From an uncultured Ignavibacteria bacterium (GTDB lineage Bacteria; Zixibacteria; MSB-5A5; CAIYYT01): DNA of 64,000 nt. Position numbers and translations under genes: made by a program. The DNA is taken from positions 4,517 through 68,516 of the forward strand of contig CAZIBI010000011.1 of assembly GCA_964537215.1 (NCBI GenBank), given 5' to 3'. Shown piece after piece: positions 383 through 25,934 of this stretch (position 1 is the first letter of the stretch; every line of letters begins with the position of its first letter). The notes beneath the pieces are model-generated. The model saw only the letters and a list, made by a program, of their open reading frames with translations. It had not been told where the DNA came from and searched no databases.

Positions 383-1231
383 ATGGCTTGCAACGATCCG
401 CGCTACCAATTCTTGCTGGCTGATGCCGCATTGGGCAAACTGTCGCCAGGCGAGATGTTCCAGCTTCAGAGCCACTTGCGCAGCTGTCAAACTTGCCGTG
501 AGAGCTTCAGGGCCGGCGCGATTTTGGCAGGAAAGGACCACGAAGATTTGACTAAGGAATTTGGCGGGCATCCATCAAACGACGAAATTACGCAATACTA
601 CTCGGAGCGCGCCGGCTTGGCGCCCGCCGTTTTGCAATCGATTGAATCGCATCTGGAACTGTGCGCCTTGTGCCGCGAAGAATTGCAATTGTTCGAGCAG
701 GTCGAGCAGGAAATGCTTGCGGCAGCTACGGCAGGACAGAAAACAGCCGGCAATGACGGCGGCTGGCAACACGCTAAGGCGATTGTCCTCCACCCGGTTT
801 TTGCTGCGGCGGTGCTTCTTGTCGTGGCGACGCCGCTGTATCTGATGTGGCGAGATCAAGCCAAACTTTCGGCGCCGATAGTTCCAGGCATACCAACTGC
901 GATAGAACTAAGAGAACCGAGCCGATCGGGCGGAAGCATACAGACTATCCTCAAGCGGCCCGATGGCAGCTATCTGCATCTCATTCTGCCCTATCCTTAT
1001 CAAGTCAGCACGCGTCACTATTTTGTGCAGCTTCACGGTGCCGAAGCAATGAGCGCGGAATCACCGCCGGTCTGGTTGAGATTTTCGCAAGCCGGTAAGA
1101 TCGATGCGTTGATTGGGGCCGCCAATCTCCCCGAAGGGCGGTATGAGCTTACAGTATTCGATGTCGGACGCGAGTTACTGCCCGATACTCTTACCACCTC
1201 ATTCATCTTTGATCTCAAAATTCGAGATTAG
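383..1231 (+). CDS. ZAS-type anti-sigma factor: two zf-HC2 motifs, one transmembrane helix and a periplasmic C-terminal domain
   Basis: There are two HxxxCxxC motifs (HLRSCQTC and HLELCALC). A hydrophobic helix (AIVLHPVFAAAVLLVVATPLYLMW) is followed by a roughly 130-aa C-terminal domain. The gene lies directly downstream of the ECF sigma gene. Confidence 0.6.
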   Translation: MACNDPRYQFLLADAALGKLSPGEMFQLQSHLRSCQTCRESFRAGAILAGKDHEDLTKEFGGHPSNDEITQYYSERAGLAPAVLQSIESHLELCALCREELQLFEQVEQEMLAAATAGQKTAGNDGGWQHAKAIVLHPVFAAAVLLVVATPLYLMWRDQAKLSAPIVPGIPTAIELREPSRSGGSIQTILKRPDGSYLHLILPYPYQVSTRHYFVQLHGAEAMSAESPPVWLRFSQAGKIDALIGAANLPEGRYELTVFDVGRELLPDTLTTSFIFDLKIRD

Positions 1232-7022: not shown

Positions 7023-7505
7023 TTACGCGCCGCGCCGCGGAGAGCCGCCCCAGATGAAATTGCCGACCATGTAGATGATGATCGCTGCCACTGCCCCCTG
7101 CAGACCGAACCGTATTGAATACCAAAACCCGAAACCGGTCGGTGAGATGAAGGCCAGGAATATGCCGATCACGAACGGCAATGCTATTGACCGATTGTCG
7201 ACAAAGAAGAGCTCGCCGTTCTTCTTGACCTTGCGCTTCGTAAATTCCGTCAACACGAAGATCATGCCGACAAGCACGGCGAACAGAAACGGGTTTGCGC
7301 CAAAGTACCGCGCCAGTGACTCGATCGTGAGAATTTTGTCGAAGTCGAACGGCGACGGTGTGACGATAGTCGTATCCACAACAGTCGAGTCGAAGCTGCT
7401 CGCGGTTACGGTTCCGACTGCAGGCACGGCATTAGTCGGAATGGTCTGCTGAGCCCAGAGAGTGACTGGCATGATCAGCAGTGCCAGAACGAAAAGGATT
7501 CTCAT
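7023..7505 (-). CDS. Holin-like or lysis-associated membrane protein (signal peptide plus three transmembrane segments)
   Basis: The product begins MRILFVLALLIMPVTLWAQQ and has three further hydrophobic helices. It lies immediately downstream of the endolysin gene. The start is placed at the internal Met, because the 7023..7640 ORF would overlap the endolysin by 115 nt. Confidence 0.4.
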   Translation of the reverse strand: MRILFVLALLIMPVTLWAQQTIPTNAVPAVGTVTASSFDSTVVDTTIVTPSPFDFDKILTIESLARYFGANPFLFAVLVGMIFVLTEFTKRKVKKNGELFFVDNRSIALPFVIGIFLAFISPTGFGFWYSIRFGLQGAVAAIIIYMVGNFIWGGSPRRGA

Positions 7506-7525
7506 GTGTTTCAAATTCCCTCCAA

Positions 7526-8089
7526 TCATAGCACCGTCCGCGACAACCAGCCGTGGAGGTACCTGCGAAACTGTGAATTGTTGATTGCTAACTGCGTATA
7601 GAAGGCCCGCCGCAAATCCACCTGGCTCTCGGCGATCCAAGCGTAGTCTGACTTTGCCGCGGTCAATGCAGCAATCGTCTGATCGCCCATGACACCATCG
7701 ATCTTGACATCGATGCGCGACTGCGGACTTTTGTTGTGGACGTTTAACGCTGACTGCAAAAATATGACAGCCCGTTGGGCGCCGATATTCACAGCGGCGT
7801 CGAAAAGTTCGTTGGCTATTCGCTGGTGGATAATCTGGTTGCAGCGCAGTCGCTCCCAGATGTCGAGATAGAATGTCTCAACCTCGTCATTGATATCCGG
7901 GTCCAGCTCGAGCATGCGCGGGAAGCCGGGCCCCTTCTTCATCTCGTCGACCTTCACCCACCCCGGCCATTGTGGGTTGCGCTTGCGAGCAATGCCGCGA
8001 AACGTCTCGCCGCCTGGATCGGCGGGATCGATTGAATAGCCGCCCTCGTGCTTGGAAGTTTGCTCCCAAGCGTATTTGAATTCTGCCAT
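7526..8089 (-). CDS. Endolysin, glycoside hydrolase family 108 lysozyme domain with C-terminal peptidoglycan-binding domain
   Basis: The N-terminus carries the GH108 signature HEGGYSIDPADPGGETFRGI. The C-terminal part resembles PG_binding_3. Confidence 0.75.
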   Translation of the reverse strand: MAEFKYAWEQTSKHEGGYSIDPADPGGETFRGIARKRNPQWPGWVKVDEMKKGPGFPRMLELDPDINDEVETFYLDIWERLRCNQIIHQRIANELFDAAVNIGAQRAVIFLQSALNVHNKSPQSRIDVKIDGVMGDQTIAALTAAKSDYAWIAESQVDLRRAFYTQLAINNSQFRRYLHGWLSRTVL

Positions 8090-9136: not shown

Positions 9137-9520
9137 TTAGACTGTGGCCAGATTGGTAATCTTGAACCGTAGTTCATCGACAAAGGTCTTGGGCTCAGCG
9201 CCCGCAAGGACGACGGTCAAAGTTAGGACGTGCGTTTCCTCGCAGATCTCGGCTCCGCCGCTGTACACGATCACCGCATCAGCCGGAGTGAGCTCCAAGA
9301 GAAATTCTCCATCTTCATTGAAGCATTCGATCAAGTTCATTGCATTGCGACCGTTGACTGCTGCTGTAGGTTTTCCCTCGACCGTGATTTTTCCCGTCGC
9401 CGATGCGATCATCGAGCGGACGACGACGGTTCCATCCGAGGTTTTCAATTCCTGATCGAAATACAGGTCGAAGGAATTTCCCTCGCGGACTGAACCGGTT
9501 ACGTTGATCGGCATTGTCAT
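9137..9520 (-). CDS. Hypothetical protein (127 aa), coupled to the giant fibre gene by a 4-nt overlap
   Basis: ORF with a 4-nt overlap; possibly a fibre chaperone or assembly factor. Confidence 0.35.
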   Translation of the reverse strand: MTMPINVTGSVREGNSFDLYFDQELKTSDGTVVVRSMIASATGKITVEGKPTAAVNGRNAMNLIECFNEDGEFLLELTPADAVIVYSGGAEICEETHVLTLTVVLAGAEPKTFVDELRFKITNLATV

Positions 9521-12500
9521 TGCCTCCGAATTCGTGCTTTGATTAGTTCTGTGACTCGCGTAATGGCCGCATTGAGCGATGCGGATTTCATCGCAGCGCC
9601 GGACAGCTGCAGGGATTGCAACAGAACTTCCGTTAGCTCCGGCGTCCGCAACATTGCGCCGCCGAGCTCCGGCACAAACAGCCTGGCGTTGGCAATCGCC
9701 AGGACCGCCAGAAAGACGCCTATGTATTCAACTGGAAGTTGCGACTGTGCAATGATTCCGCGCAGGGCTTCGACCTCGAGCCGCGAACGCAGGCTGAAGG
9801 CGCGATTGAATTCAATGTGAGTTGTGATAGATCCCGACACCGGGCTGACAAAGTCAATCGACATGTGGCCCGTCGCGCCAATTCTCCCCATCCATTCCGC
9901 GAGAATACCCTGGGCGGCCGAAATTGCCTTGTTATGCTCGACGGCAAGCCGGTTGGAAGCCGCGAAGGCCTTGCCGGTCTCAACCAGAAGAGTTCCGCCG
10001 ACAACGTTAATCGTCGCACGCGATTCGATCGGCAACCGCGTGTTGGCCGCGACTGACGCTTTCCACTCAACCGGAATCGCGGAACTCATTGAGACGACCG
10101 TTGCGCCGGAGAATTCGAGCGGCAGCTTTGTCGCAAGAATCACTTGCAGCGCGTGCTCGATATTGGTTTTCAATACGCTTGTGACAATCGTGCCCGTATC
10201 GATTTGAAATTGGCTCTGCGCGGCAAGCTTACGCAGGAATTCGGTATTCATGCCAGCGATCACGCCCGCCAACGCCCGGCTTAATTCAACCGGAGCATTC
10301 AATCCGCCGGAAACAGACTTGAGCGATTCCGCCGGCAGCAACGCCGAAAGCGTCCGGACTGAAAGCGACTCGATCTCGACGCGGCCGCGGGCGTCGACCG
10401 AACTGCGCCATTCGACCGGCAGCTGCGCCGACACTTGGAAGTTCTGTGCTCCCAACCACTCGACGGCGATCTGTTGGGCAAAGGTGATCGTGGCCGCCAG
10501 CTCAACCGGAGCCTTCGCCATCGACAACCGCTGCATCAAGACTTCGACCAGTACACTGTTCGCCGCTTGAAGAGTGCGAAGGTGCTCGGTAAGTAGCCGC
10601 GTGACAATCTGCGTGCTGGCCAACCATTCGACCGCGGCTGCGCTTTTAACTATCAGAGATCCGGAGAAATCGACAGCGAGTTTTTGCCCGGCCGCAATCG
10701 CCCTGTTGGTCTCTACCGGGACGATGCCGCTAATCTGAACAGATCCCAGGAATTCGACCGGCAACGCGTGAGTCATCGCTACCTGAAATTGCCCTGTCCA
10801 CTCAACGGGAAGACTGACCGCGTTCGCGACGCTGCGCAGTGATTCGACCGGAACGATTTGCCCGGCAGCTACCAGCTTATTGATCTCCGCCGGCGACGTC
10901 ATCGCCGCAGCAAGTTGCCGCAGCGTTTCGACTGGAGCGACTAAGACCACTGCGAATCCGCCGCGCAGCTCGATTGGAAGTTGAACCGCGGCTGTTAAAC
11001 CGCGTGCGTTTTCGACCGCCATTCCTGCCGGCGTAACCAGGCTGTGCAGCAGATCCGCCGGCATCCCCGATATTGCGGACAGCGAGCGGACATAATCAAG
11101 CGGCAACGTGAAAAGAATCGCGACATTGCCCTTGTACTCTGCCGGCAGCATACTTCGCAATTCGATCCCTGCGAGTGAATCGACAGGAAGCGGCGTGCTC
11201 GCCTGCAGCGTGGAACGCCATTCGGAGAATATCTGCTGGGCAGTCGCCAATTGCTTGTTGGCTTCAACCGGCACGGCGATCTTCGCCTGGAGCGAGCCGG
11301 AGTATTCGTCGGGTAATTTTGTCGCGATCGCAATCGCCGCGAGGCTTTCCATATACTGCTTTAGCGACGCAACCAATGCTGCGCTGAATTCTACCGACAT
11401 TCCTGATCGTGCCTGCAATGAACCGCGCAACTCCGTTGGCAAAAGTGAGCGCGTCTGAAGTGCGCTATTATTCTCGGATGCCAGTACGGCCGTTGATCGC
11501 GTAAAGTATTTGTCCAGCTTCATGTCGATCGTGAATTGCTCGACGCCGGCGCCAAGTAGCGCGATATCGGTCGTGAAGCCCGCAACCTCTTCCGGCTGCA
11601 GATCGATGACCGGGTTGAGATCCCACCAGTAGATTTTGATTTCTTCGATTTCGGCGGTGACGTTTCCCGATGTCGTTACAGTGACCGCGTAATAATCCAC
11701 CTTGACCGAGTACTGACCCAGCGGCAAGCCCAGCGCCTTCAAATCAAATGAAACGGTTGTGCTCTGGAAGCTCGTGGTCAGATTCGTAATCGTGGCCGTC
11801 GAGTTGGCAACAGCTTTCGTCGCATCGTAGGTTGCGCCGCTGGAGACCCACACGTGGAAGCTGGCACTGGAACCGGCCGAGCTCGAGGTCAGCTTCGCGC
11901 GAATCTTGACGTCGAGTTTCCAAACGTCATTCTGCGCCATTTCGTGCTTGCCGTCTTGCGTCGCTTCGTAGGTGGCTGTGTGATCCGTGCTGTAAGAAAT
12001 TGTGTTATCGGTGAAGCTCGATGTCACCGTTGTCGTTTGCCGCTTGTCCTTCTTGCGCTTGACGATGATCTGATCGAAGTACGATCCTTGATCCGCCTTC
12101 AATTTCCATTTCGTCGCATTCGCGATTGAACTTGTGATTTCATCGGCAATCTTGGTACCGCCAAACCAGGCAGAGCAGCCAACGGAAGTGATCTGCAGGG
12201 CGACTTGATACATCTGGCTCTCGAGCGCGTGCAAGCTGCTGTCGTGCCACCCGGTGGAATCTTCGTACTGCGCATAGCTCACGTCGCGATTGATACCGAC
12301 CGACAACACGGCCGCGGCCGCATTGACCAGCTGCAAATAAGTCCGCAGGTACAGCTCATCCATCCAGAGAGCGCAACTAACGATGATATCATCGAGCGCC
12401 GAAGCTAAACTCTTCTCGAGCGCGAAGGTGCCACCCGGAGCGGTTTTCAGCGACCGCGAACCGGTGGCTGTCTTGTTCGGATGATTCGGAGGGCTGACGT

Positions 12501-15474
12501 AAACGGATCCGCTACTCGAGGTCACGGTCATGCCGCGCACGCCATTGACATTCGCTCCGTCCGCGAGCGTCTCAAAGTTCTCATACCCGAGAGGATAGAC
12601 AATCGTCGGATCCGACTTCGGATTGGTCGCGATATCGGGAGCGCCGTAATAGACGTAGAGATCCTTAGCGCCGGCCTTCTTTCCGGCCGACAACGCTTCC
12701 GGTGCCCGGAAAGAGACTATCGTCTCTTCATAGTTGGCGTAATCGATCACGCGGTCCAGCTCGGTCGTGCCCCAATAGACGCGTAGGTCCTTTACGTCGC
12801 GGCGAATCTTCCCATAGGGCGAGGCCGTGAGCTGGAAGACGTCGTTGCCCGATGTCCACATCAGATCAATGCGGTTGTTGGTCAGGCTGTGCTTGATGTT
12901 AAGTATCGGGACGCCAATAGATGAATTGCCGGTAAGGCTCCGTTTTGCCCAGGTTGCACCCGCGTCGTTCGAGAGCAGCTCGATAATCTCAGACGAATAG
13001 CTCTCGTCATCGGATGCTTCGACGAATTCGACAAGGCGATTAACCCGGCTAACTCTGATCGACGCGCCGGCGGTGAGCTGCTTGAATCCAAACTCGACCG
13101 TCTCTGCGGCAGCTTTGGTCCAGGCTGCCGAGGTCGACGGGTTCGTCGTCCAGATATATATTTTCTCGCCATAGGCAGTGTTGGTCAAGACCAGGTCCGG
13201 GCTCTGATAATCCGTGCTCGAGATCCGCAAGATCGCCCGCAGGTCCGGCGTGCCGGAGACCTTCTTCGCAGCGATCGCGACACCGACACCGATGATCAGC
13301 ACATCCGAAGGCAGCGTTGCCGACTTGGTAAAGGAGGCCTCGCAGGTGGACGACGCATGGAGATAAGTATCGTCGGCGTCATAACGTTGAATGCCGTCGT
13401 CGACCAGCGCGTAGTTGACTGACCCGGTCGAGCGTGAAATGTTTGTATGAAAGCCGTCGGCGGCCGGAATGTGATGCTTGTATGCGCGCGAGTCGGCAAC
13501 AGTATAGCAGTGAATCGTGCCGTCCTTGTCGCAGATTGCCGGGCTGCCGCAACGTCCCATCCGGATATTGAAATCCAGATCTTCGGTCATATAGGTGTGC
13601 TGCCAGGCGCCGCTTGCATAGCGCGAGCTGCCAAGGCCACCATCACCATCTGGAGCCCCGAAATCTGGGGCGTAAGCCCACAATACCACCGGCTTATTGT
13701 CGCGCGTCAATGTCAGGTGCCGACAAAAGAAGCTGACGCGATTCCCCGTTTCGTTTTCAATCACTGCGCCAGCGCTGGCTTTGTTGATTCCGGTGCCGGT
13801 TGTACCGCACTGGATTCCAGCGATCGTTCGCCAGGTTGCAAAGCCTCCGGAGCCGCCTTCGTTGTAGTCGCTGTATGCGTACCAGACGCCGAGGGCAATA
13901 TTTGATCCTCCGACGAATGACCAGGCGATGTGAATGCGCTCATTCTTGTCGAGGCGCAAGCCATACATGTAAGTTCGATAAGAGCCGACGTCGTTGTAAT
14001 TGATGATCTCCTGCTCGGAGCTCCAGCTCTCCCCTACCGTGTCGGAATAGTAGAGCACGACCTTGGTCGCCGCGTCGGTTGGTCCCTTGCGCGCGAACAT
14101 GTAAATGCGATTCGAAGAAGGCACCACGATCGCGATCGGATAAGTGTTCTGCGATCCGAGCGTGCCTTTGAGCGTCCAGCCGGTTTCGCCGGCAAAAGCG
14201 CCGGACTGATTTGGTGAGACCGACTTTGCGTAATAGGTCGCCGTGTAATGACAGCCATAGAAGACGTGCAGGTAGCCGGTGTTGTCGATCGTGATCGTCG
14301 GATAGTAGTGGGTGTCAGTGCCTGTGTGCGCGTTATCGATCTTATAGGGCGTGCCCCACTTGTTGGTCACATAGTCATAGCTCTGGATGTAAATACCGAG
14401 ATAGAAATCGCTCTCGAGCTGGCCGAGATAGACGACGTGCTTCTTGGTGCCGAACTCCGCGACCGCATATCCGCTTTCCTGGATCGCTTCATTGTAAGCG
14501 CCGTTGGTTGCAATCTTGTACCGGTTGCCGGTCTTGATTTTGAACTCGTGCGTGTAGTCATCGGTGCATCCGGAGTGCTTCGTATTGAACAGCATCTTGC
14601 GGCGGAAACAATATTTCTCATCCGCCCAAATCCGGTTGATACCTTTGAATTGCGCGTAAGCGCTGTAGTCCGATTCAATCGCCGACCCGTCTTTGAACTT
14701 GATGCGCCAGTAGTACCAGCCATTCGGCGGATCAGATGACAGCTCGCTGCCGTTGTAATCGATCAGCTGGCAGCGGTTGCCGTGCGAAATATCAGTGATA
14801 TCAATCCAGCCCGAGTCCCACACCGTCGAAGCGAAATTAGAAACCGTCGAGACCTGAACATAAGCATGCGTCGCTGTTCCCGATCCGGCAGTGGCATTCC
14901 ACTGCGCCGAGAAGACGGGATCTTCCGAAGCGTCGGTCGGCTGCGACTGGCGCTCGCACTCGAGGTTTGTTGGCGACGGGTGATTCGCGAGGGTGTAATC
15001 GACAACGATCCACACCTGCGTAACTTCCGGATGTTCGCCGGCGACGCCGCGGGCCCGGCACTTGACTCCAGCTTGCAGCGAATCGATATCGCTCGCCGAC
15101 CAGCTACCACCGCCCGGTCGCGAGACCACTTGAGAGTATTCGGCCCAGGATGTCGTAATCGAGAACTGGCTGCCTTCGACCGTCGTGCCGCCGAGGCGCA
15201 GGATCGGGATTACCTGGTTGTTGGTCGAAGTTCCAACCTTGCGGCAGCGAACATAGACCGTGACCGAATTGACAGCGCCATACGCGCCCGCATGATTCTC
15301 CAGCGCATAGCTGTCGGTCAGGTAACTGGTGCCGGTCGTGAAGACGTAAGTCGTGGCATCATCAGCCGACGACTCCGCTACGCACTCCCAGTTGGTTAAG
15401 AGGAGTTCAGGATCTTGTGGCGTCAGCGCGGTGAGGTCACCGGCACCGTTCGGGCGTAAGAGTTCTGTTGACAC
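9517..15474 (-). CDS. Giant (1985 aa) tail fibre or host-specificity protein: N-terminal Ig/FN3-like and beta-propeller-like regions, then about 40 tandem degenerate 18-aa repeats (LPVEW-type) at the C-terminus
   Basis: A single uninterrupted ORF. Its C-terminal ~700 aa are periodic (...SLPVEWTGQFQVAMTHALPVEFLGSVQISGIVPVETNRAIAAGQKLAVDF...). At DNA level the CCGGTCGAA-type unit recurs about every 54 nt. Confidence 0.6.
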   Translation of the reverse strand: MSTELLRPNGAGDLTALTPQDPELLLTNWECVAESSADDATTYVFTTGTSYLTDSYALENHAGAYGAVNSVTVYVRCRKVGTSTNNQVIPILRLGGTTVEGSQFSITTSWAEYSQVVSRPGGGSWSASDIDSLQAGVKCRARGVAGEHPEVTQVWIVVDYTLANHPSPTNLECERQSQPTDASEDPVFSAQWNATAGSGTATHAYVQVSTVSNFASTVWDSGWIDITDISHGNRCQLIDYNGSELSSDPPNGWYYWRIKFKDGSAIESDYSAYAQFKGINRIWADEKYCFRRKMLFNTKHSGCTDDYTHEFKIKTGNRYKIATNGAYNEAIQESGYAVAEFGTKKHVVYLGQLESDFYLGIYIQSYDYVTNKWGTPYKIDNAHTGTDTHYYPTITIDNTGYLHVFYGCHYTATYYAKSVSPNQSGAFAGETGWTLKGTLGSQNTYPIAIVVPSSNRIYMFARKGPTDAATKVVLYYSDTVGESWSSEQEIINYNDVGSYRTYMYGLRLDKNERIHIAWSFVGGSNIALGVWYAYSDYNEGGSGGFATWRTIAGIQCGTTGTGINKASAGAVIENETGNRVSFFCRHLTLTRDNKPVVLWAYAPDFGAPDGDGGLGSSRYASGAWQHTYMTEDLDFNIRMGRCGSPAICDKDGTIHCYTVADSRAYKHHIPAADGFHTNISRSTGSVNYALVDDGIQRYDADDTYLHASSTCEASFTKSATLPSDVLIIGVGVAIAAKKVSGTPDLRAILRISSTDYQSPDLVLTNTAYGEKIYIWTTNPSTSAAWTKAAAETVEFGFKQLTAGASIRVSRVNRLVEFVEASDDESYSSEIIELLSNDAGATWAKRSLTGNSSIGVPILNIKHSLTNNRIDLMWTSGNDVFQLTASPYGKIRRDVKDLRVYWGTTELDRVIDYANYEETIVSFRAPEALSAGKKAGAKDLYVYYGAPDIATNPKSDPTIVYPLGYENFETLADGANVNGVRGMTVTSSSGSVYVSPPNHPNKTATGSRSLKTAPGGTFALEKSLASALDDIIVSCALWMDELYLRTYLQLVNAAAAVLSVGINRDVSYAQYEDSTGWHDSSLHALESQMYQVALQITSVGCSAWFGGTKIADEITSSIANATKWKLKADQGSYFDQIIVKRKKDKRQTTTVTSSFTDNTISYSTDHTATYEATQDGKHEMAQNDVWKLDVKIRAKLTSSSAGSSASFHVWVSSGATYDATKAVANSTATITNLTTSFQSTTVSFDLKALGLPLGQYSVKVDYYAVTVTTSGNVTAEIEEIKIYWWDLNPVIDLQPEEVAGFTTDIALLGAGVEQFTIDMKLDKYFTRSTAVLASENNSALQTRSLLPTELRGSLQARSGMSVEFSAALVASLKQYMESLAAIAIATKLPDEYSGSLQAKIAVPVEANKQLATAQQIFSEWRSTLQASTPLPVDSLAGIELRSMLPAEYKGNVAILFTLPLDYVRSLSAISGMPADLLHSLVTPAGMAVENARGLTAAVQLPIELRGGFAVVLVAPVETLRQLAAAMTSPAEINKLVAAGQIVPVESLRSVANAVSLPVEWTGQFQVAMTHALPVEFLGSVQISGIVPVETNRAIAAGQKLAVDFSGSLIVKSAAAVEWLASTQIVTRLLTEHLRTLQAANSVLVEVLMQRLSMAKAPVELAATITFAQQIAVEWLGAQNFQVSAQLPVEWRSSVDARGRVEIESLSVRTLSALLPAESLKSVSGGLNAPVELSRALAGVIAGMNTEFLRKLAAQSQFQIDTGTIVTSVLKTNIEHALQVILATKLPLEFSGATVVSMSSAIPVEWKASVAANTRLPIESRATINVVGGTLLVETGKAFAASNRLAVEHNKAISAAQGILAEWMGRIGATGHMSIDFVSPVSGSITTHIEFNRAFSLRSRLEVEALRGIIAQSQLPVEYIGVFLAVLAIANARLFVPELGGAMLRTPELTEVLLQSLQLSGAAMKSASLNAAITRVTELIKARIRRQ
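9520..11500 (-). repeat. Tandem degenerate ~54-nt coding repeats (about 40 copies) inside the giant fibre gene
   Basis: Recurrent ttcgaccgg / ctcaaccgg / ctcgattgg motifs at regular spacing, matching the P[VI]E[WF] periodicity in the protein. Confidence 0.6.
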
Positions 15475-17499: not shown

Positions 17500-18723
17500 T
17501 CACACCCAGGCGACGGCAACGTCGATGGGCACAAATTGCGGAATGATCTTGGCTAAGTACTCTCTCTTGGCGGTCTCGAATTGCGGCGACCCGGAGAGTG
17601 TGATTGTCAATGTCTTGTCTGCCTGTCCGGCAGCGAAGAACTTCGGCTGCTTGCGCCGGTCCAGCACGCGCAGGATGTAGTTGTCAAATTCGACATCGGT
17701 GCCGAAGGCGCAGAACAGTCCCTTCTTGTTAGCTGCCACCAGCGCGGCATAGTTCTGTTCATAGATCAAAGTCGTCTCATCGAGTATGACGGTGATCTTT
17801 TCGCCGGTATCCCAGATCGTGATTCGATGCGTTCCGGTTCGCCAGGTTGTGCCGGTGATGTCGACGACGTGAATTGGAATCCACGTACCGCTGAAGACGT
17901 AGACCGTCAAGCTCTCAGCCGAGCCGCTCTTGTCGAGCGTCACTAAAAGTGCCTTCGTCGCGCTCTCATATCTGGCCACAGCACCAAACCAGCAATCGCC
18001 GGTTGTCAGCAGCCGGTACTCAAATTGCAGATTGTAATCCGAGGTCGTCTCCGGGAATGTCGCCGACATCGTCGGCGCCAAGGTTCCGCTCAAGGCTGAG
18101 CCGCGCAAGCTTTGCGCAATCGCTTTGAAATTGCCCAGCGCCTCATTCGTCCAGCCTTCCATCGAACCAGAATCCCACGAGTGCGAGACTTCCTTTGACG
18201 TCACTGCCAGACGCGACCAAAATTTGTGCCGGTTGAAGCGGCCGGAAATCTGATACTCCATATCCATTAGCGCCGTGAAGCCCAAATCCTCGATGATGCG
18301 CTTCACGGACCAAAACGTCCCGCGACGCTTGAGGATCGTGAATGCATCGCGCACTAAGCGCCGACGCTCGCGTTCAGTGGCGTACGGCAAATCGATCAAC
18401 TCGAATCCGAAGTTGGCCGCCAGATGCGACAGAAACCGCTGGTCACAGCGCTCATAGTCGCCGAGATACTGGAGCTCGCGCGCGCGGTCGTACATGGTGT
18501 TGAGCATGTCATTGAGCGGTCCGGCAAATTCGACCATGCCCGGCGATTTCTGGCAACCCGGCAAAAAGTCGAGAATGTCAATCGCTTGCGGCTTGATGCG
18601 CGTTTCCGGAAAAGGGCGCACGCCGCGGTGGTCAACCGGACCGCCGCCGATACCGGCCGGAAACTGCGGATTGAAGTCAAAAAAACCGCCGGGAGTCGGC
18701 GAGACATTGTGATCTAAAACCAA
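17500..18723 (-). CDS. Baseplate protein, P2 gpI-like N-terminal region with an extended C-terminus (407 aa)
   Basis: The N-terminal ~150 aa resemble the tail protein I family (...RRLVRDAFTILKRRGTFWSVKRIIEDLGF). The gene sits in the baseplate region. Confidence 0.4.
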   Translation of the reverse strand: MVLDHNVSPTPGGFFDFNPQFPAGIGGGPVDHRGVRPFPETRIKPQAIDILDFLPGCQKSPGMVEFAGPLNDMLNTMYDRARELQYLGDYERCDQRFLSHLAANFGFELIDLPYATERERRRLVRDAFTILKRRGTFWSVKRIIEDLGFTALMDMEYQISGRFNRHKFWSRLAVTSKEVSHSWDSGSMEGWTNEALGNFKAIAQSLRGSALSGTLAPTMSATFPETTSDYNLQFEYRLLTTGDCWFGAVARYESATKALLVTLDKSGSAESLTVYVFSGTWIPIHVVDITGTTWRTGTHRITIWDTGEKITVILDETTLIYEQNYAALVAANKKGLFCAFGTDVEFDNYILRVLDRRKQPKFFAAGQADKTLTITLSGSPQFETAKREYLAKIIPQFVPIDVAVAWV

Positions 18724-18726
18724 GGC

Positions 18727-20301
18727 TTAGTCCTTGCGCGTTTTCCGCGCATCGAGCACGGCGGGATTGTTATTGTGGTAGAATGTGATCGTCGCCTTTT
18801 TGGTGCCGGCCAGATAGACTTCGTAGCCGTCTTTGTAACCGCTGCCGTCGGCCGGAAGATATTTCGTCGAGCAGCCGGCGCACGAGCCGGCGACATACAT
18901 CATCATTTCGATCCACGACTCAAGACTGTCGGTGGCCGACAGTGCAGTAGTCAGCGAGTTGATGATGCTTGTAATCCGCGTGTCGTTTTGCGTTCCATTG
19001 GCCGCCAGAAGAACGGTTATCTCTGCAACCGCGTTAGAGCCATCGGCGTCAAAAGCTTCGTTCAGCCCGGTGATGCCAACAGTCGATCCGCCAAGCTGCG
19101 TCAGGTTCGTCACCGTCGCCAGCGTGCCGCTGGGAGCAAGCCTGGTTGAGACCGCAACGTCAAGATTCGGCGCTTCCGAGGAAGTGATCGCGCTGGCTGC
19201 AATCTTGGCCCCTGTTATTGCGTCGGTGCCAATTTCGCCAGCGTCGATAGTCCCGGAAGTATTATTCAGATCAATCCCGGCCTCGCCGGTGGCGTTAACG
19301 TCGAGCGTCCGCGCTGGTACTGTCGGTGCCAGGCGCGATGATACCGGAACGTCAAGCCCGATCGCTATGGCATCCTGCAAACCCTGCAGCTTTGTTTGCG
19401 CACCGGAGAATGAAGTATCGCTGTCCAATCCATTAGCTCCGAGCCGGACAAATCCACTGACGTTGCCGCTGAGATTTCCGAGCACATGCAATTCCGCCGA
19501 GACATAGTTCTCGTTGCCGTCGAACATTCCGTTGAGGCCGAGAATGCCAAAATTGGTACCGCCGAGCTGGGTGACGTTTGTCACGGTCGCCAGAGTACCA
19601 CCCGGTGCGAGCCTTGAACTAACAGCCGCATCGAGGTTCGGCGCCTTAGCTGCAGTGATCGCGCCGTCCGCGATCTTCGCGCCCGTCAAAAAGCCGTCGG
19701 CAAACTTGGCGGCAGTGAAAGAGTTGCTCTCCAGATCTCCAGCTCCGAGCAATCCGCTCGTAGCATCGAAGTCGACACCGGCGTAGCCGATACCGTTGAT
19801 CGCGAGGGTTCGACCTGCCACTGCGGGAGCAAGCCGCGAAGTCACCTGCGCATCGAGGTTTGCCATGATCCTTGCATCGACGGCCTCGACTGTGTTGGTC
19901 TTCACATCGTATTGGAACTTGGTTTCTGCTATGTCGCCGGCGCCGTAGAGAGTCACCGTCGTCGTGTACTGGCCAAGCCCGCCCGCCCCGTCGATGTCCT
20001 GTATCTGATCATACCAGATGTAGCTGGTATCTTCGCGGTTGACCACCATCGCAATACTGATGTCGTTGAATGGGAAGGTAGTCGAGAAAGCAAAGTAGGC
20101 CTGCCCTGTTCCCGCCAACACTGTCTTAATTGAAGCACTGTCGGGCTTGACCGGCACCACGACTGAACCAGAGGCGATCACGGGCTTAACCAGGTAGTCG
20201 CCGATGTTGTCAACGGCGCGCTTCTCGCCGAGATTGGATGCCACAAGCGGCAAAACCGGCAGGCTCAAAATGAGCAGCCGGAGCATGAATCTCCTGAACA
20301 T
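18727..20301 (-). CDS. Signal-peptide-bearing repeat protein (524 aa) with an internal ~170-aa duplication; putative fibre or adhesin, or a secreted moron
   Basis: The N-terminus (MFRRFMLRLLILSLPVLPLVAS) looks like a Sec signal peptide. The internal repeats are ...VSSRLAPGGTLATVTNVTQLGG... and ...VSTRLAPSGTLATVTNLTQLGG.... Confidence 0.45.
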   Translation of the reverse strand: MFRRFMLRLLILSLPVLPLVASNLGEKRAVDNIGDYLVKPVIASGSVVVPVKPDSASIKTVLAGTGQAYFAFSTTFPFNDISIAMVVNREDTSYIWYDQIQDIDGAGGLGQYTTTVTLYGAGDIAETKFQYDVKTNTVEAVDARIMANLDAQVTSRLAPAVAGRTLAINGIGYAGVDFDATSGLLGAGDLESNSFTAAKFADGFLTGAKIADGAITAAKAPNLDAAVSSRLAPGGTLATVTNVTQLGGTNFGILGLNGMFDGNENYVSAELHVLGNLSGNVSGFVRLGANGLDSDTSFSGAQTKLQGLQDAIAIGLDVPVSSRLAPTVPARTLDVNATGEAGIDLNNTSGTIDAGEIGTDAITGAKIAASAITSSEAPNLDVAVSTRLAPSGTLATVTNLTQLGGSTVGITGLNEAFDADGSNAVAEITVLLAANGTQNDTRITSIINSLTTALSATDSLESWIEMMMYVAGSCAGCSTKYLPADGSGYKDGYEVYLAGTKKATITFYHNNNPAVLDARKTRKD

Positions 20302-20314
20302 GGGGATCTCCTAT

Positions 20315-23300
20315 TTAGTCGATTTGTCTTTTCTTCTTGCGCAGAACAGTGCTGGGCTGCTCGCCGGATTGGAAAGTGAAGTTGAGAGTCGTTGGCTGGT
20401 TGATCGTGAACTGCTGCTGTTGCTCGACGAAGTTGTGCGTCACCTTTATCGTGTAGGGATTGTACAAGGCGCGGTCCGAGTTCTGGTTATAGGTCGTCGT
20501 CTTGGCCGAGTCACGGAATTCATCCAAGATCGTGATCAGTTGACCGGAAACTCCCGTAACGCCGGAATAGACCAGCGAGTCGAGCGCATTGCGGATCTCC
20601 ACGTTCGTGCCGGAAAGCGGCGCGGCCGTTTCGTTGCGGCTATTGATCGTCGCCGTCCACGAGATAAACCATTCGGTGCCGTCATTCGGCGTGGTGAGGA
20701 AATTATAAGCGCCGAACATCATCGTGCGCTCGAACGCCGAATCGGCCTCGGCGTCGCCGTAGCGATTGTCGATGAATCGCAAATCGCGGGACGACAGATA
20801 CGTGTTCTCGCCGTTCTTGGCCTTGCGCCAGTTCGGGGCGGTCAGCGTATCCTTGAAATCGAAAAAATTATCGCGGAATTCGAGGCCAACCGAGTTGACA
20901 CCAACGCCGCGCAGCAAGAGTCCATTGGAGATAAAATTGTTGTGCCGCATTTCCATGAAGTCGACGCCCGCCTGGTAGCTCCAGCTCGGGTAGTAAAGCT
21001 GCAGCGCCGATCCCGTCACCGTTCCGGTCGAGAAGCCTCGGAAAGTATTGTCGTGGATGAACCACTTGAAACTGCCGGAGCGCGTAATCCGGATGCCGTC
21101 GACGGCCGGCGCACTCGGATTGATCGCCAGCGCCGTCGCGTAATTGTTGCGCAGAGAACAAATCGGCGCGCCCTCGATCTGGATACCGTAAGCGAGATTC
21201 CCGTAGCCATATTCCTGCGAGTACTGGTAGGACTCGACAGAAATGATGTTGCCCTCGACAATCGACCACTGCATCGAATCCGGATCAACTGCCTTGGTGG
21301 TTATATGGATGCCGGTGCCGTGGTAGGTCCCGGTGCCGAAGACCTTGTTGTAACGAATGATGCTCGCAGCATTGCCATAATCTTCAATCGCGAATCCGTT
21401 TGTGAGTACTGTCTTGGGGTAGAATTCGCAATTCTGAACGATGTTGCGCGGGTATTGGAGTATCCCGTCACCTGTCACGTCGCGCTTCGTGGTTACATAG
21501 ACGCCCTGGTAGGGATAATTATAGAAGCGGCAATGATCAATGACAGAACTATATCCATAGCCTCCCTTGTCGGCTCGCAGATTCACCCCGACCGAAGGCA
21601 CCGCCTCGCGCTTGGTGTAATGGAATGACAGCGGATTATCCGGGAAGGTGACATCGGTCGAATCGACATTCCAGCGAATAGCGTTCCAGGTGAAAATGCC
21701 ATTGGGATTTGAACCCTTCGGGAAGATCGTCGCCTTCTTGATCGTGACATCCGAGCAAGTATAGGAGCCGTAAATACCGACGCTGAACAGCGACGGCTGA
21801 ACCGGCTCAATGCGGAGATCTCTGATGATCGTCCCCTCGCCAACACCGCCGGCGACGCCGAGTCCCCAAAACTCGCGGTTGCTCGCTGTCGTGCCGTAAC
21901 AAGTGCCACCATCGACAGCCATCGTATCGCCCGCGGCATCGTGATAGCGCTGCGCGTTCATCATGTCGAGCACGAGCGAACAGGTGTCCGGTTCAAGCGC
22001 GACGCCGAACGATCGGAACGTCGTATGCAGAACATGATCGAAGTAGACTTGATCGGAGCTTGCAGCTGTGCTGCCGCCGGTAATCTGAATGAAAATCTTG
22101 TAACTCTCCACCGAATTGCCGGTCATGAAATGCACCCAAACCGGTTCGGAACCCCGCTCCATCGTACCAGTGTTGTTCGTCGCGGAATAAGCGGTATCGC
22201 CGCCTGCGGTTAGTAGTCCCATCGTCACGCGGACGTTGGTGTTGGCTGTGTTCAGATACGCCATTTCGATCGCGTGATGAGTCTTCGGTGCAAAATTGTA
22301 GAATGCCGCGCTCTTGACCGTCTGCGTTGTGCAAGGGAGCTGTACTCGCAGTGCATAGCCGCCATCCCAAACCGACGGTTCATCGCTGCCCTCCAGGACA
22401 ACTTCATAGTGACCGGACCTGCGCGTAATCGCCGGCGCATCGCTGAAGTCCCAATTCACAGCCCGGGTCGGATCGGTGTCGGGAGTCTCAAAGGAATTGT
22501 TAGCGATGTTGTTCAGCGCAACGGAGTCTGGCGCCAGCTTATAACCATTGCCGAGGATGATCACGGGCGTCTGAATAACCAGTCCCCACTTCTTATTGCG
22601 GCAATAAACATTCTCGATGAAATTGAGCGTGTCGCCTGAGGCGAATCCATTCGCCGTATTGACAAGCCCGCCGTAATTGTCATGCCACATCTGCCCGATA
22701 TCGTGCCACTTGGGACTGTGCGAAGGCGCGGCCGGCTGCCAGGCACCATAGTAGGTGTGTGGCTTCCCGCCGTAAGTGAAGTTCATTTGCGCCGGAGCGG
22801 TTGGTCGGCCGAAGTTTCGATTCTCCGGATCGGTCAGAAGCGGATCGACGTTCGGGGTACTGTGAGCATCGAGCCCGCAAGCCTGCCATTGCGTCCAGTT
22901 CGTGCTATTGGAATTGCAGTAGCCGATGAACGACGTCGCGGGGTCAAAGTACATGTTGCTGTCAATACTGATGAATTCCTGCGGCTGATGACCATTCCAG
23001 GAAACCAGTCGCATCCAATTGTCATATTGATTCGATGCGTGCAGATAATCGTACATTAGGTTGTACTTGACGACGGTGCCGCTCCCGGAGATAGCCTCCT
23101 GCGCCCCAAACAGGGCATTGCACTTATAGGCTGTATTGTTGCAGATGAAATTGCCGCCGCGAGCATATCCGGTTGAATCCGTCGCGCTGGCGCCGGAAAG
23201 TTGTATGAACGTGGTTGGTAGCTTATAGCCGATGTTTGTGTATGCCGAGCAGGCTTCCGCCTTCTCTCCGATCCAGATCCCATATTCCCTTTGCCCAATG

Positions 23301-24406
23301 CAAGTGCAGTTGCGCACGACATTGCCGACCGCATGATGGCCAAAGTCCGGATAGTTACCCATCTTGAGGCTGACGCCGGCCGCAAAGACCGTTGAGTCGA
23401 AATAACAGCCGTCGATGACCGTCTCTCTTGTCGCGTAAAGTGCAATCCCCGATCCACCATGAGGCGTCACTGCCGTGCCGCTCAAATCGCCGCGCACGTG
23501 CCACAAAGAACAGTTCAATATTTCATTGAATTGCGACCACGAGGAAAGTGCGGAGCCGTAGGTCGCTCCGTGGAAGATTGCCGCGGGATTGGAGTATTTG
23601 AAATTTGATGAATACTTCAGATTACATTGTTCGATTCGCCAGTTATCGCCCCCGCCACCATCGGATGTTCCCTGCGCAATCAGGTAATGGCCAAGATAGA
23701 TATTCAGCCCGTAGATCGTGACATAGTCGCAGGTCTCACTGCGACTGCTGAATACTTCCTGGACTGCTGCCATGTAAGTTAAGGTGTTCGGATTGACGCG
23801 CGTGGACGGCCAGATATATAAAGTGTCGGTGATGGCCTGATAGTAGAAAGTCCCAGGGCCGTTCATCCAGACAGATGTATCCTGCGCGAGCTGCGATCCA
23901 TAGATAGAATACTCGCCGCTGTTGAGCACACGGCACGGCCGCATGAGAACATTCGTGCCCTCGATGACGCAAGTCACAACGTCCGTGCGGCTATACCAGG
24001 CGTTTCTGGCTGAGGCTGTCGGCGCGTACACCTTCTTCCACTTCCAATTCGAACCGCTCGAATCAAAGCAGACCCACGAAGCGCCGCCAACGACTTCGCC
24101 GCCCCAGAGGGTTGTGCGGTAGGCGGAACCAACAGTAAAGGTCGAGCAGGCATAGACGGTTCGGTCTGTTGCCGAAGTGCCACCCGACGGTACATTGATG
24201 CGAACATTGTACCAGTTGCCGGTACCGAAAAGGACGGTATCACCGGCAACAACAGTCGAATTGATCTTTGTATGCGTCGCCCAAGCCGTCGCCCAAGACG
24301 TTCCATTGTTGGCATCACTGCCGCCGATTGCGACGTAATAGGTCAGCGCGTTTGCTGTCACCGACCAAAGCAGCAGCAGGGCCAGTAGCCCGATGATTCT
24401 CTTCAT
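20315..24406 (-). CDS. Signal-peptide-bearing right-handed parallel beta-helix (pectate-lyase fold) protein, 1363 aa; putative tailspike, depolymerase or secreted polysaccharide lyase
   Basis: The N-terminus MKRIIGLLALLLLWSVTANA precedes the beta-helix entry motif LTYYVAIGGSDANNGTSWATAW. The body is a long N/G/T/Y-rich repetitive region typical of beta-helix carbohydrate-active proteins. Confidence 0.5.
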   Translation of the reverse strand: MKRIIGLLALLLLWSVTANALTYYVAIGGSDANNGTSWATAWATHTKINSTVVAGDTVLFGTGNWYNVRINVPSGGTSATDRTVYACSTFTVGSAYRTTLWGGEVVGGASWVCFDSSGSNWKWKKVYAPTASARNAWYSRTDVVTCVIEGTNVLMRPCRVLNSGEYSIYGSQLAQDTSVWMNGPGTFYYQAITDTLYIWPSTRVNPNTLTYMAAVQEVFSSRSETCDYVTIYGLNIYLGHYLIAQGTSDGGGGDNWRIEQCNLKYSSNFKYSNPAAIFHGATYGSALSSWSQFNEILNCSLWHVRGDLSGTAVTPHGGSGIALYATRETVIDGCYFDSTVFAAGVSLKMGNYPDFGHHAVGNVVRNCTCIGQREYGIWIGEKAEACSAYTNIGYKLPTTFIQLSGASATDSTGYARGGNFICNNTAYKCNALFGAQEAISGSGTVVKYNLMYDYLHASNQYDNWMRLVSWNGHQPQEFISIDSNMYFDPATSFIGYCNSNSTNWTQWQACGLDAHSTPNVDPLLTDPENRNFGRPTAPAQMNFTYGGKPHTYYGAWQPAAPSHSPKWHDIGQMWHDNYGGLVNTANGFASGDTLNFIENVYCRNKKWGLVIQTPVIILGNGYKLAPDSVALNNIANNSFETPDTDPTRAVNWDFSDAPAITRRSGHYEVVLEGSDEPSVWDGGYALRVQLPCTTQTVKSAAFYNFAPKTHHAIEMAYLNTANTNVRVTMGLLTAGGDTAYSATNNTGTMERGSEPVWVHFMTGNSVESYKIFIQITGGSTAASSDQVYFDHVLHTTFRSFGVALEPDTCSLVLDMMNAQRYHDAAGDTMAVDGGTCYGTTASNREFWGLGVAGGVGEGTIIRDLRIEPVQPSLFSVGIYGSYTCSDVTIKKATIFPKGSNPNGIFTWNAIRWNVDSTDVTFPDNPLSFHYTKREAVPSVGVNLRADKGGYGYSSVIDHCRFYNYPYQGVYVTTKRDVTGDGILQYPRNIVQNCEFYPKTVLTNGFAIEDYGNAASIIRYNKVFGTGTYHGTGIHITTKAVDPDSMQWSIVEGNIISVESYQYSQEYGYGNLAYGIQIEGAPICSLRNNYATALAINPSAPAVDGIRITRSGSFKWFIHDNTFRGFSTGTVTGSALQLYYPSWSYQAGVDFMEMRHNNFISNGLLLRGVGVNSVGLEFRDNFFDFKDTLTAPNWRKAKNGENTYLSSRDLRFIDNRYGDAEADSAFERTMMFGAYNFLTTPNDGTEWFISWTATINSRNETAAPLSGTNVEIRNALDSLVYSGVTGVSGQLITILDEFRDSAKTTTYNQNSDRALYNPYTIKVTHNFVEQQQQFTINQPTTLNFTFQSGEQPSTVLRKKKRQID

Positions 24407-24422: not shown

Positions 24423-25934
24423 TTAGAGTTCGAAGTCGAGGATCGTACGCGACACCGATGTGCCGCCCTGATTGGCCGTTATCGCAATCGAAGCGATATT
24501 CCTGATTTGATAAAGCGGCATCGTCAAATCCGAGGCCGGCGAATCGATAACAACGCGGTCGATGCCCTTGACATTTTGGATCTCGCGCGAAAGCTTGGAG
24601 AGTGCGACGACAGCGCCGAATTCGTTTGGATAGAGTCCGTCGGCGTCGCGGTAAGTCGGCGAACCGAAGCGCACGATCGCTTGCCGCACTTGCTCAATGA
24701 CCTGATCACGGAAATAGCCGTCGGCAATCCAGATCTCGATATCGTAACCGACATCCAAATAGGACGGATCGGATACTCTAACCTCGGTGAGAATTGCTCG
24801 GATATCATCGCCGTTCAGATAGGCGGCAACTTCGGCTTTGAACCCGGCGGCCGGATTGCCCCCGGAAGCGGGCACGAAACGCACGTCGATGGTTAGATTG
24901 TCAATTCCCACAGCAACCGCCTGTGCGATTGCGCCATAATCTTCAGAAACATAGTCGAGCAGTAGCGACTTGATGGCTTCCGAGGTCAGACCCGACATCT
25001 GTGCGCGCCACTTCGCGAGTGCCAGAACCTTGGCGTGCCGAACCGTCTCGGCATCCATGCCGCCAGTGGCCGCCAATGGATTTGTGACGGATTGCACGTG
25101 ATCGATGACGGTGAGAAGTTCCGTGATCGTGTTCGCGCCGACATTACCGGTCGATCCTCCACCGGTGCGATACGTCGCCCGAATGTTGTTGGTGCCGGCG
25201 GCCGGGACAGCTCCCATTTCACCATCGCCGAACTGCAGATAAACCCAGCCTTCGTTGTCGATCGTTATCGTATAGTGTTTCGCCGTCGGGCTGGAGTCCA
25301 CCAGATCGATAACTCTTGTCCATGTCACCCAGGCTGATCCGTCAAAAACGTCGATGCCTTCCGATTGCCACACCACCGGCCGGCGCTTCAGATAGAACCG
25401 CTGCCGCGCCGTGCCGTTCGATGAGCCCACGACTTCGTGGATCACTGACTCGCCCTGGATCACCGGAACCGAAGCCGTCGCCGCATCGGCGAGCACCAAA
25501 ACGTCTTGCGTGCTTTCGAACGGGATCGCGTCGTCAGTGATGCTGGTGTCGGTTGCGAATCGAGTGCGAGCAGGGATCGTTAGTTCTGCATGCGGAACCT
25601 CGAACGTGAATTGCACCGACGTTGTCGCCGAGGTCCTCTCCCTTACCATGTGCCCTACCTGCCGGCAGAGCGAGCGCACATCTTCGCGCCGGTCAGCCGT
25701 CACGAGAAACGCATTACGCGCTGCTTGGTTGGCTGCCTGCTGGGTGATGTGAGATAAGGAAGAAAAGACCGAGAGCAATTGATTGCCCGGATCGGTTGCC
25801 GAGTTGTCGGTCCAGCTCGGAGCGACAACTGACTTGATCGCGAGCGCGTTGTCGAGTAAATCCTGCAGCGAGTACTCACTGAACGGAATCTCGACCAGCG
25901 GGATCTTCCGCGTTCTGTCGGGAACTAAAACCAT
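24423..25934 (-). CDS. Baseplate protein, gpJ-like (503 aa)
   Basis: Its size and position immediately after the gp25/W-like gene (1-nt overlap) fit gpJ in the canonical V-W-J baseplate order. Confidence 0.5.
   Translation of the reverse strand: MVLVPDRTRKIPLVEIPFSEYSLQDLLDNALAIKSVVAPSWTDNSATDPGNQLLSVFSSLSHITQQAANQAARNAFLVTADRREDVRSLCRQVGHMVRERTSATTSVQFTFEVPHAELTIPARTRFATDTSITDDAIPFESTQDVLVLADAATASVPVIQGESVIHEVVGSSNGTARQRFYLKRRPVVWQSEGIDVFDGSAWVTWTRVIDLVDSSPTAKHYTITIDNEGWVYLQFGDGEMGAVPAAGTNNIRATYRTGGGSTGNVGANTITELLTVIDHVQSVTNPLAATGGMDAETVRHAKVLALAKWRAQMSGLTSEAIKSLLLDYVSEDYGAIAQAVAVGIDNLTIDVRFVPASGGNPAAGFKAEVAAYLNGDDIRAILTEVRVSDPSYLDVGYDIEIWIADGYFRDQVIEQVRQAIVRFGSPTYRDADGLYPNEFGAVVALSKLSREIQNVKGIDRVVIDSPASDLTMPLYQIRNIASIAITANQGGTSVSRTILDFEL

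Follow-up and report, generated by a model that had tools for sequence, protein, structure and literature searches.

Two putative Sec-exported proteins encoded between the baseplate genes of an uncultivated contractile-tailed phage

The 64,000-nucleotide stretch analyzed here (the window; positions 4,517 to 68,516 of contig CAZIBI010000011.1, assembly GCA_964537215.1, deposited as an uncultured Ignavibacteria bacterium) carries, from ~7 kb to 64 kb, the genes of a contractile-tailed phage read on the minus strand, and between its gpJ-like and gpI-like baseplate genes lie two open reading frames (ORFs), ORF-A and ORF-B, whose products appear to begin with Sec signal peptides. The reading we favor, with a probability of roughly 0.45, is that ORF-A and ORF-B are late proteins exported through the Sec pathway to act on the envelope or matrix glycans of the infected cell, probably as an A-B pair. 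The polysaccharide-enzyme-like ORF-A and the fiber-like ORF-B would then probably leave the cytoplasm, the site where phage tails are built. The original prediction, made from the sequence of this region, had placed two large proteins with signal peptides in this interval; two genes do fill it, at exactly the predicted coordinates, and the flanking genes pass their Pfam thresholds. The features concerned, in window coordinates, are as follows.

24423-25934, minus strand: gpJ-like (T4 gp6-type) baseplate wedge gene (Pfam Baseplate_J, 8.6e-13; PHROG baseplate wedge subunit, 4.4e-35).
20315-24406, minus strand: ORF-A, 1363 aa with an ATG start; predicted signal peptide, beta-helix N-domain, C-terminal region, and polybasic tail.
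24344-24406, minus strand: predicted signal peptide of ORF-A, aa 1-21, MKRIIGLLALLLLWSVTANA followed by LTYY, with n-, h-, and c-region features.
22727-24343, minus strand: N-domain of ORF-A, aa 22 to ~560, predicted right-handed parallel beta-helix of the carbohydrate-active-enzyme type.
20345-22726, minus strand: C-terminal region of ORF-A, aa ~561-1354, with a second Beta_helix match at aa 955-1125.
20318-20344, minus strand: polybasic C-terminal tail of ORF-A, LRKKKRQID.
18727-20301, minus strand: ORF-B, 524 aa with an ATG start; predicted signal peptide, beta-rich N-domain, duplicated fiber-type repeat, and CxxC C-terminal domain.
20236-20301, minus strand: predicted signal peptide of ORF-B, aa 1-22, MFRRFMLRLLILSLPVLPLVAS followed by NLGEKR, with n-, h-, and c-region features.
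19414-19869, minus strand: ORF-B repeat unit 1, aa 145-296, an LDxxVSSRLAP...GRTL... module found by self-alignment.
18979-19368, minus strand: ORF-B repeat unit 2, aa 312-441, found by self-alignment.
18730-18939, minus strand: C-terminal domain of ORF-B, aa ~455-524, with invariant C474 and C477 (CxxC) and the basic end ARKTRKD.
17500-18723, minus strand: gpI-like baseplate gene (Pfam Tail_P2_I, 2.7e-11), starting 3 nt past the ORF-B stop codon.

Signal peptides were judged by a simple home-made screen for hydropathy and charge, applied to all 61 minus-strand phage ORFs, and only ORF-A and ORF-B passed it (2 of 61). Both leaders have a basic n-region, a hydrophobic core of 12-13 residues, and small residues at -3 and -1: in ORF-A these are MKR, IIGLLALLLLWSV, and TANA, with predicted cleavage before L, and in ORF-B they are MFRRFMLR, LLILSLPVLPLV, and AS, with predicted cleavage before N. 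The features expected of Sec and signal peptidase I substrates (an n-region, an h-region of 7-15 residues, and small uncharged residues at -3 and -1) are thus predicted in both proteins, and the textbook signal peptides of the original prediction are confirmed to this extent. The same architecture is present in 10 proteins that occupy the position of ORF-A in this phage and its relatives (slot A) and in at least 9 ORF-B homologs, despite divergent sequences. Alignments of ORF-A orthologs begin at aa 20-22, that is, at the predicted cleavage site, and the slot-A protein of the most distant relative, L019, retains a signal peptide although its body is unrelated. Among ORF-B orthologs, variable leaders are followed by a conserved mature start, (A)NVGEKRAVD, and the L007-type and L019-type proteins have different yet typical leaders ending in AQS. 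As they are kept in every ortholog despite divergence, the leaders appear from these alignments to be under selection.

Other export routes were also considered. For the lipoprotein (signal peptidase II) route, the lipobox [LVI][ASTVI][GAS]C is not matched; the cysteine of some ORF-A leaders follows LLL, and the copy in the window has none. In the window, L002, and L015, ORF-B opens with MFRRF(M/I)L (window 20290-20301, aa 1-4), which resembles a twin-arginine motif. Twin-arginine translocation is nevertheless unlikely for this subgroup because the RR pair is missing from the remaining ORF-B orthologs, whose leaders begin MIRKII, MNWRII, or MKHTLT.

The domain that follows the ORF-A leader belongs to a family that is, as judged from its members' sequences and gene neighborhoods, secretory and linked to exopolysaccharide loci. 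An exhaustive HMMER search with the mature N-domain returned 362 representative homologs, of which 135 are matched from the very beginning of the domain; a signal-peptide-like leader of 15-45 residues stands directly before the 'TYYV' start in 110 of the 135, which speaks against the suggestion in the original prediction that the N-termini merely resemble signal peptides. A cellular homolog, P0005, from a Zixibacteria metagenome-assembled genome (MAG; GCA_023138975.1, L006 10001-13072), shares 31% identity with this domain (E 1e-54 to 1e-61) and is encoded between two glycosyltransferase/MBOAT gene sets of an exopolysaccharide locus. It combines the beta-helix with F5/F8 type C (discoidin) domains and a C-terminal domain of the type IX secretion system (T9SS) type, the NCBIfam match to the latter (aa 940-1018) scoring 35.8 bits and so falling below the curated cutoff of 260. 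Its probable role is that of a surface enzyme that processes exopolysaccharide. Because T9SS cargo depends on a Sec leader and the family includes the T9SS-type P0005, the ORF-A leader appears to be positionally homologous to working signal peptides. From these features, we infer Sec export of both ORF-A and ORF-B.

The N-domain may also have moved between phages. The corresponding domain of P0002, from phage L001, is 81% identical to that of ORF-A, whereas the head proteins of the two phages are only 26-39% identical (the comparison spans L001 1-7308 against window 12055-14820 and 22733-24346), and this difference suggests that the module of signal peptide and beta-helix is host specific and has recently been exchanged horizontally. 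In L001, the P0002 gene lies after the giant-fiber homolog rather than between J and I, and two more signal-peptide proteins follow it. The annotated start of P0003 (MAATYYVE; L005 5941-6004) is probably too far downstream, because an in-frame upstream GTG gives VKRLLYSLIFVVLICCNLMA followed by ATYYVE and restores the signal peptide.

The beta-helix claimed for the larger protein was also borne out. The entry motif YYVAIGGSDANNGTSWATAW lies at aa 23-42, and the AlphaFold2 (AF2) model of the N-domain (aa 22 to ~560; mean predicted local distance difference test [pLDDT] score 69, predicted template modeling [pTM] score 0.78) is a right-handed parallel beta-helix. As modeled, this is the fold of polysaccharide-active enzymes (hydrolases, lyases, and epimerases), including the periplasmic or secreted AlgG and RbmB. 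Conserved residues of ORF-A include H316, D254, and N423-N424-T425. Structure prediction had been proposed as a means of finding an N-terminal baseplate-anchor domain, and there is none in the model: the leader passes straight into the beta-helix at residue 22. With respect to the hallmarks of tailspike depolymerases, ORF-A therefore has the beta-helix domain and lacks an N-terminal particle-binding domain conserved among relatives. Searches of PDB sequences with ORF-A and with the ORF-B profile found nothing meaningful.

What is conserved in slot A lies instead at its two ends. The N-domain is the more variable part of ORF-A (28-80% identity across the clade), and the C-terminal region is 67-70% identical in five phages (L008, L009, L010, and L014 among them) and is swapped for unrelated sequence in L002, L007, L015, and L019, the body of the L019 protein having no detectable similarity to ORF-A. 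Orthologs over the full length of ORF-A, at 52-61% identity, are found in L008, L009, L014, and L017, and that of L010 (55%) matches from aa 294 onward and over aa 20-100. The second Beta_helix match, in the C-terminal region, is weak (1.2e-5, just under the Pfam gathering score). All 10 slot-A proteins, that of L019 among them, end in a tail of the form (hydrophobic)-[KR]4-x-I-x-[DE]. On the basis of these comparisons, slot A encodes a putative signal peptide, an exchangeable body, and a polybasic tail of ~10 residues, and only the two ends are invariant. A frameshift at the lysine-rich end that would fuse ORF-A to ORF-B was rejected, as, in the 25 nt upstream of ORF-B, the +1 frame meets a TAG and the -1 frame is not that of ORF-B; the ORF-A tail is conserved as protein across differing codons. 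No paralog of ORF-A or ORF-B, such as might make one of them an exported decoy of a virion fiber, was found elsewhere in the window.

Basic C-terminal tails are a wider property of the N-domain family, with at least three K/R in the last 10 residues in 53 of 138 members against 1.6% expected from composition; 20 further members end like T9SS C-terminal domains. Examples of basic tails among P0096-P0240 are RVRARFR and IKGVVIK, and the basic ends in the window lie at 20318-20344 and 18730-18750.

ORF-B consists of the leader, a beta-rich region, a tandem duplication, and a C-terminal domain. The two repeats (aa 145-296 and 312-441) are identical at 74 of 152 positions, with an alignment score of 323 against 44 +/- 8 in shuffles. 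There are ten full-length orthologs (55-75% identity), and the C-terminal domain is the most conserved block of their alignment; it is also found in the divergent P0019. ORF-B itself has no PHROG or Pfam match. Its repeat module, however, is common to ~70 other metagenomic proteins, of which ~20 have signal-peptide-like leaders, and two of ten such relatives tested, P0022 and P0051, match PHROG tail-fiber families (892 and 21412). In P0035, P0058, and P0069, the leader precedes the same N-terminal domain with which relatives devoid of a signal peptide begin. The AF2 monomer model of ORF-B, built from 11 sequences, had a pLDDT of 37, was unusable, and was not taken into the fold search.

Several of these observations would suit ordinary tail fibers or tailspikes that are assembled in the cytoplasm and whose hydrophobic N-termini serve oligomerization or baseplate docking. 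The genes sit in the tail module, the beta-helix is a fold common to tailspikes, the ORF-B repeats are of the fiber type, and a poor monomer model is common for obligate fiber oligomers, the ORF-B alignment being shallow as well. The leaders nevertheless behave in a manner opposite to that of a docking segment, as their sequences vary while the n/h/c architecture and the small residues at -3 and -1 stay constant, and their positive n-region predicts an N-in/C-out topology. Together with the positional homology to genuine signal peptides of T9SS-type cargo in cells and the lack of any anchor domain between leader and beta-helix, this makes it improbable that ORF-A and ORF-B are conventional cytoplasmic fibers.

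It is clear from the comparison with related phages that this arrangement is not peculiar to the window. The relatives examined (L002, L007, L008, L009, L010, L014, L015, L016, L017/L018, and L019; n = 11) all have the order gpJ, signal-peptide protein (1196-1781 aa), ORF-B homolog, and gpI, with gpI always directly downstream of the ORF-B homolog; L016 is partial, its contig beginning inside slot A, so that gpJ is not on the contig. The gpJ-like gene, directly upstream of ORF-A, is ~70% identical across 8 relatives, and for relatives other than L019, gpJ and gpI are ~70% and 67-79% identical, respectively, compared to 55% and 44% for L019. No relative with J and I adjacent was present among those retrieved. 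A tblastn search with ORF-A against the phage GenBank collection gave no match, IMG/VR scans with gpJ, as a single sequence and as an alignment, gave no relatives, a metagenome scan contributed one further locus only, and a profile search of a word-indexed database for additional ORF-A homologs gave almost nothing new. The host labels of the MAGs (Ignavibacteria, Zixibacteria, and Phycisphaeraceae) conflict and are unreliable.

These data bear on the view in the original prediction that the pair had been inserted between gpJ and gpI, possibly as a moron for lysogenic conversion. Its premise holds because P2 and Mu carry their J and I genes adjacent to one another. The notion of an insertion, on the other hand, does not fit an order kept in all 11 relatives, intergenic gaps of 16, 13, and 3 nt (gpJ/ORF-A, ORF-A/ORF-B, and ORF-B/gpI), and a composition (GC 0.55-0.57; GC at third codon positions [GC3] 0.67-0.68) that matches the neighboring tail genes. 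Sigma-70-type promoter-like sites (7 versus 6.6 in shuffles; other promoter types escape such a scan) and terminator-like sites (13 versus 12.1) occur at chance level, and because the gaps are just 16, 13, and 3 nt, there is no room for separate transcription signals. As far as the sequences indicate, the baseplate operon has long included the module and is co-transcribed with it.

A cassette of secreted enzymes expressed from a prophage, apart from the tail operon, that remodels the surface of the lysogen would have to be reconciled with all of these features, as well as with the presence of the module in every relative where a moron should be patchy, and the scanned part of the window yielded no integrase or repressor. 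We therefore consider such a cassette very improbable, even though the proteins appear secretory, the N-domain has cellular homologs in an exopolysaccharide locus, and the first 7 kb of the window look cellular, so that the element may be a prophage. A further point in its favor is that ~5% of prophage carbohydrate-active enzymes have signal peptides, in a study from which tail genes were excluded (PMC13507307). Adjoining the lysis end of the phage, the cellular-looking segment (window 1-7 kb) encodes a 1200-aa TPR and CHAT-domain protein (1268-4870, minus strand) and a zf-HC2 (anti-sigma-like) protein (383-1231, plus strand), and it may be either host DNA beside a prophage or accessory or defense genes carried by the phage. 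Neither a tRNA nor an integrase was noticed in the window.

In order, the minus strand of the phage genome encodes DnaB, a portal, a Mu-F-like protein, an S78 protease, the capsid, the sheath, and two tube proteins, followed by a tape measure, a gpD-like hub, the gpV spike, an 88-aa protein, gpW, gpJ, and then ORF-A and ORF-B. The matches that identify the flanking baseplate genes score 48.6 bits for Baseplate_J and 43.9 bits for Tail_P2_I, against Pfam gathering cutoffs of 21.1 and 20.6, respectively. Downstream of ORF-B, the genes encode gpI; three proteins of 372, 181, and 119 aa; the 1985-aa giant (BNR_4); two further proteins of 127 and 334 aa; and, at the end, the GH108 endolysin and the holin-like protein. 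The 372-aa and 1985-aa proteins are fiber candidates without a signal peptide and with conserved N-termini. Because the same phage has these candidates, the destination of ORF-A and ORF-B would seem to differ from that of fibers.

The giant (9517-15474, minus strand) has a BNR_4 (sialidase-like propeller) match, a weak alpha-L-rhamnosidase-like match, and a Rha78A-type Ig domain; its N-terminus, MSTELLRPNGAGDL, is kept in relatives, and it is likely a conventional virion fiber or enzyme. The endolysin (7526-8089, minus strand) combines GH108 with PG_binding_3 and has no signal peptide, and 21 nt past it lies a 160-aa protein with about four hydrophobic segments (7023-7505, minus strand) that is probably a holin. 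A 205-aa reading of this ORF from a TTG start (7023-7640) as a signal-peptide protein was discarded in favor of this multi-transmembrane, holin-like gene starting at 7505. Elsewhere, the head module includes a 386-aa protein (42433-43593, minus strand) with a weak ABC_tran match, and a 613-aa HerA/Zot-like ATPase (50417-52258, minus strand) adjoins a 166-aa protein (49903-50403, minus strand) with a long hydrophobic segment.

Leader-bearing proteins are also encoded in the distal tail modules of four further types of uncultivated phages. In the siphovirus-like L003/L004 (L003 2259-15924) and L005 (945-10079), five or six consecutive distal-tail genes have leaders, and these runs, which include Peptidase_C1 (papain-family) proteins, stand just before a holin-like gene. 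In the small prophage L012 (8865-12013), the last two genes of the structural module have leaders and are just upstream of a holin-like gene, whereas L013 (6283-11005) has two signal-peptide proteins after the tape measure, and L001 (4726-11156) has three after its giant-fiber homolog.

This recurrence raises the possibility, the main alternative to the favored reading, that the proteins are exported and then attached to the virion. The depolymerase and the fiber would fold in the periplasm via Sec and be captured by finished baseplates only once the holin has breached the inner membrane, or else in the lysate, with docking by their C-termini and no N-terminal anchor. The location of the genes between the wedge genes in all relatives would be explained in this way, as would be the invariants of slot A, since a signal peptide and a ~10-residue tail retained even in L019 fit a docking peptide for a conserved phage partner. 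The strong conservation of ORF-B at its C-terminal domain, the sharing of its repeats with tail-fiber families, and the leaders of P0035, P0058, and P0069, placed ahead of a domain that begins relatives without a signal peptide, point the same way. So does the receptor-binding-protein position of the signal-peptide proteins in L003, L005, L012, and L013, just before holin-like genes, and a canonical holin working with an endolysin that has no signal peptide would mix cytoplasm and periplasm at lysis. However, no case of a tailed phage whose tail proteins undergo Sec processing turned up in the literature searched, parts that meet only after membrane rupture would be dilute and have little time to assemble, and the phage already has conventional fiber candidates. 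Nor is a need for oxidative folding evident, because cysteines make up 1.7% of ORF-A, which is no more than a moderate excess, and number two in ORF-B. We regard export followed by attachment as possible but somewhat unlikely. A broader version, spanning this lineage and several other uncultivated phage types with probable hosts in the Fibrobacterota-Chlorobiota-Bacteroidota (FCB) group, would be that these phages route receptor-binding and depolymerase proteins through Sec, mature them in the periplasm, and join them to the baseplate outside the cytoplasm via a short, conserved C-terminal peptide. We put this forward tentatively and consider it doubtful; if true, it would reverse the usual N-terminal anchoring and add to the assembly of tailed phages a final, extracytoplasmic step that has not been described before.

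For the favored reading, in which the exported pair acts on glycans of the infected cell, a plausible sequence of events can be proposed. ORF-A and ORF-B would be co-transcribed with gpJ and gpI late in infection, as the gaps of 3-16 nt and the lack of separate signals suggest, and both would then pass through Sec and lose their leaders to signal peptidase I, consistent with their sequence features and with the family-wide leaders. They would fold outside the cytoplasm rather than being built into the baseplate within it, and the C-terminal peptide of ORF-A would probably bind a conserved partner, ORF-B being the obvious candidate. Their action on envelope or extracellular polysaccharide may strip or block glycan that would otherwise trap progeny virions, or it may ease escape through the matrix. 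Several points weigh against this proposal. Export and activity are both putative, and no catalytic residues were identified. The ORF-B repeat module is typical of tail fibers and odd for a protein outside the virion, the position between wedge genes and the conserved C-terminal peptide also fit a virion component, and the signal-peptide proteins of other phage types occupy the slot expected for receptor-binding proteins. In addition, NCBIfam models detect no T9SS C-terminal domain in ORF-A or ORF-B, only the ~10-residue basic tail being present in its place, which speaks against a T9SS route beyond the periplasm.

Comparison with known systems indicates that the parts are of known kinds, namely beta-helix glycan enzymes, fiber repeats, and Sec leaders on phage proteins. 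The gpV, gpW, gpJ, and gpI homologs stand in the same order as in the simple baseplate operon of P2 and Mu (V-W-J-I-H), but here J and I are 5.7 kb apart with two signal-peptide proteins between them; the P2 counterparts are smaller than gpJ (503 aa) and gpI (407 aa) of this phage. Virion-associated beta-helix depolymerase tailspikes, such as P22 gp9, the CBA120 TSPs, and Klebsiella phage capsule depolymerases, have an N-terminal particle-binding domain and no signal peptide, whereas the helix of ORF-A follows directly on the predicted cleavage site, and it is a signal peptide at one end and a C-terminal tail at the other that are conserved. Closer in this respect are cellular secreted beta-helix proteins such as P0005, of the same domain family and with a signal peptide directly before 'TYYV', and exopolysaccharide-processing enzymes of the AlgG, RbmB, and WceF kind, the modeled ORF-A fold matching AlgG and RbmB. 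P0005 and 19 other family members, however, end in a T9SS-type domain, while ORF-A is without it and is encoded between phage baseplate genes.

Exported phage proteins encoded in or beside tail or receptor-binding genes also have precedents in T5 Llp, Cor of phi80, N15, and T1, and lambda Lom and Bor, with T5 llp and cor encoding receptor-blocking proteins beside receptor-binding genes. These resemble ORF-A and ORF-B in their export signals and tail-gene location and have a proposed role in blocking adsorption to infected cells or debris. They are, however, small, separately expressed lipoproteins or proteins of the outer membrane, whereas ORF-A and ORF-B are multi-domain proteins of 150 and 55 kDa with leaders of the signal peptidase I type, packed inside the wedge operon. 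Like the proposed roles of ORF-A and ORF-B, the Sec-exported lysis proteins, including the signal-peptide endolysin Lys44 of fOg44 and the signal-anchor-release endolysins (PMC6116005), are examples of late phage proteins that use host Sec before lysis. Those proteins are peptidoglycan hydrolases encoded in the lysis cassette; in this phage, the endolysin lacks a signal peptide, and it is the baseplate operon that encodes the leader-bearing proteins. On Sec signals of tail proteins, the literature searched offered just signal-peptide and signal-anchor-release endolysins, the loading signals of Photorhabdus virulence cassette (PVC) contractile injection systems, and signal-peptide-bearing prophage carbohydrate-active enzymes. 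The placement of two Sec-type proteins in a wedge operon, the layout of leader, body, and polybasic tail, and its recurrence in other phages were not described there.

In the prevailing view, the tails of tailed phages assemble wholly in the cytoplasm, and their depolymerases are components of the virion that lysis sets free. A conserved pair of proteins with Sec signals in a wedge operon, along with similar proteins in receptor-binding slots elsewhere, challenges this picture. Either the export of large glycan-active proteins ahead of lysis is common among phages and would serve to destroy receptors or clear matrix from inside the cell, or the maturation of some tail proteins takes place outside the cytoplasm. 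In both cases, the annotation of host-range genes and of 'auxiliary' carbohydrate-active enzymes in viromes would be affected, and the combination of a signal peptide, an exchangeable body, and a polybasic tail may represent a concrete, testable sorting or docking signal.

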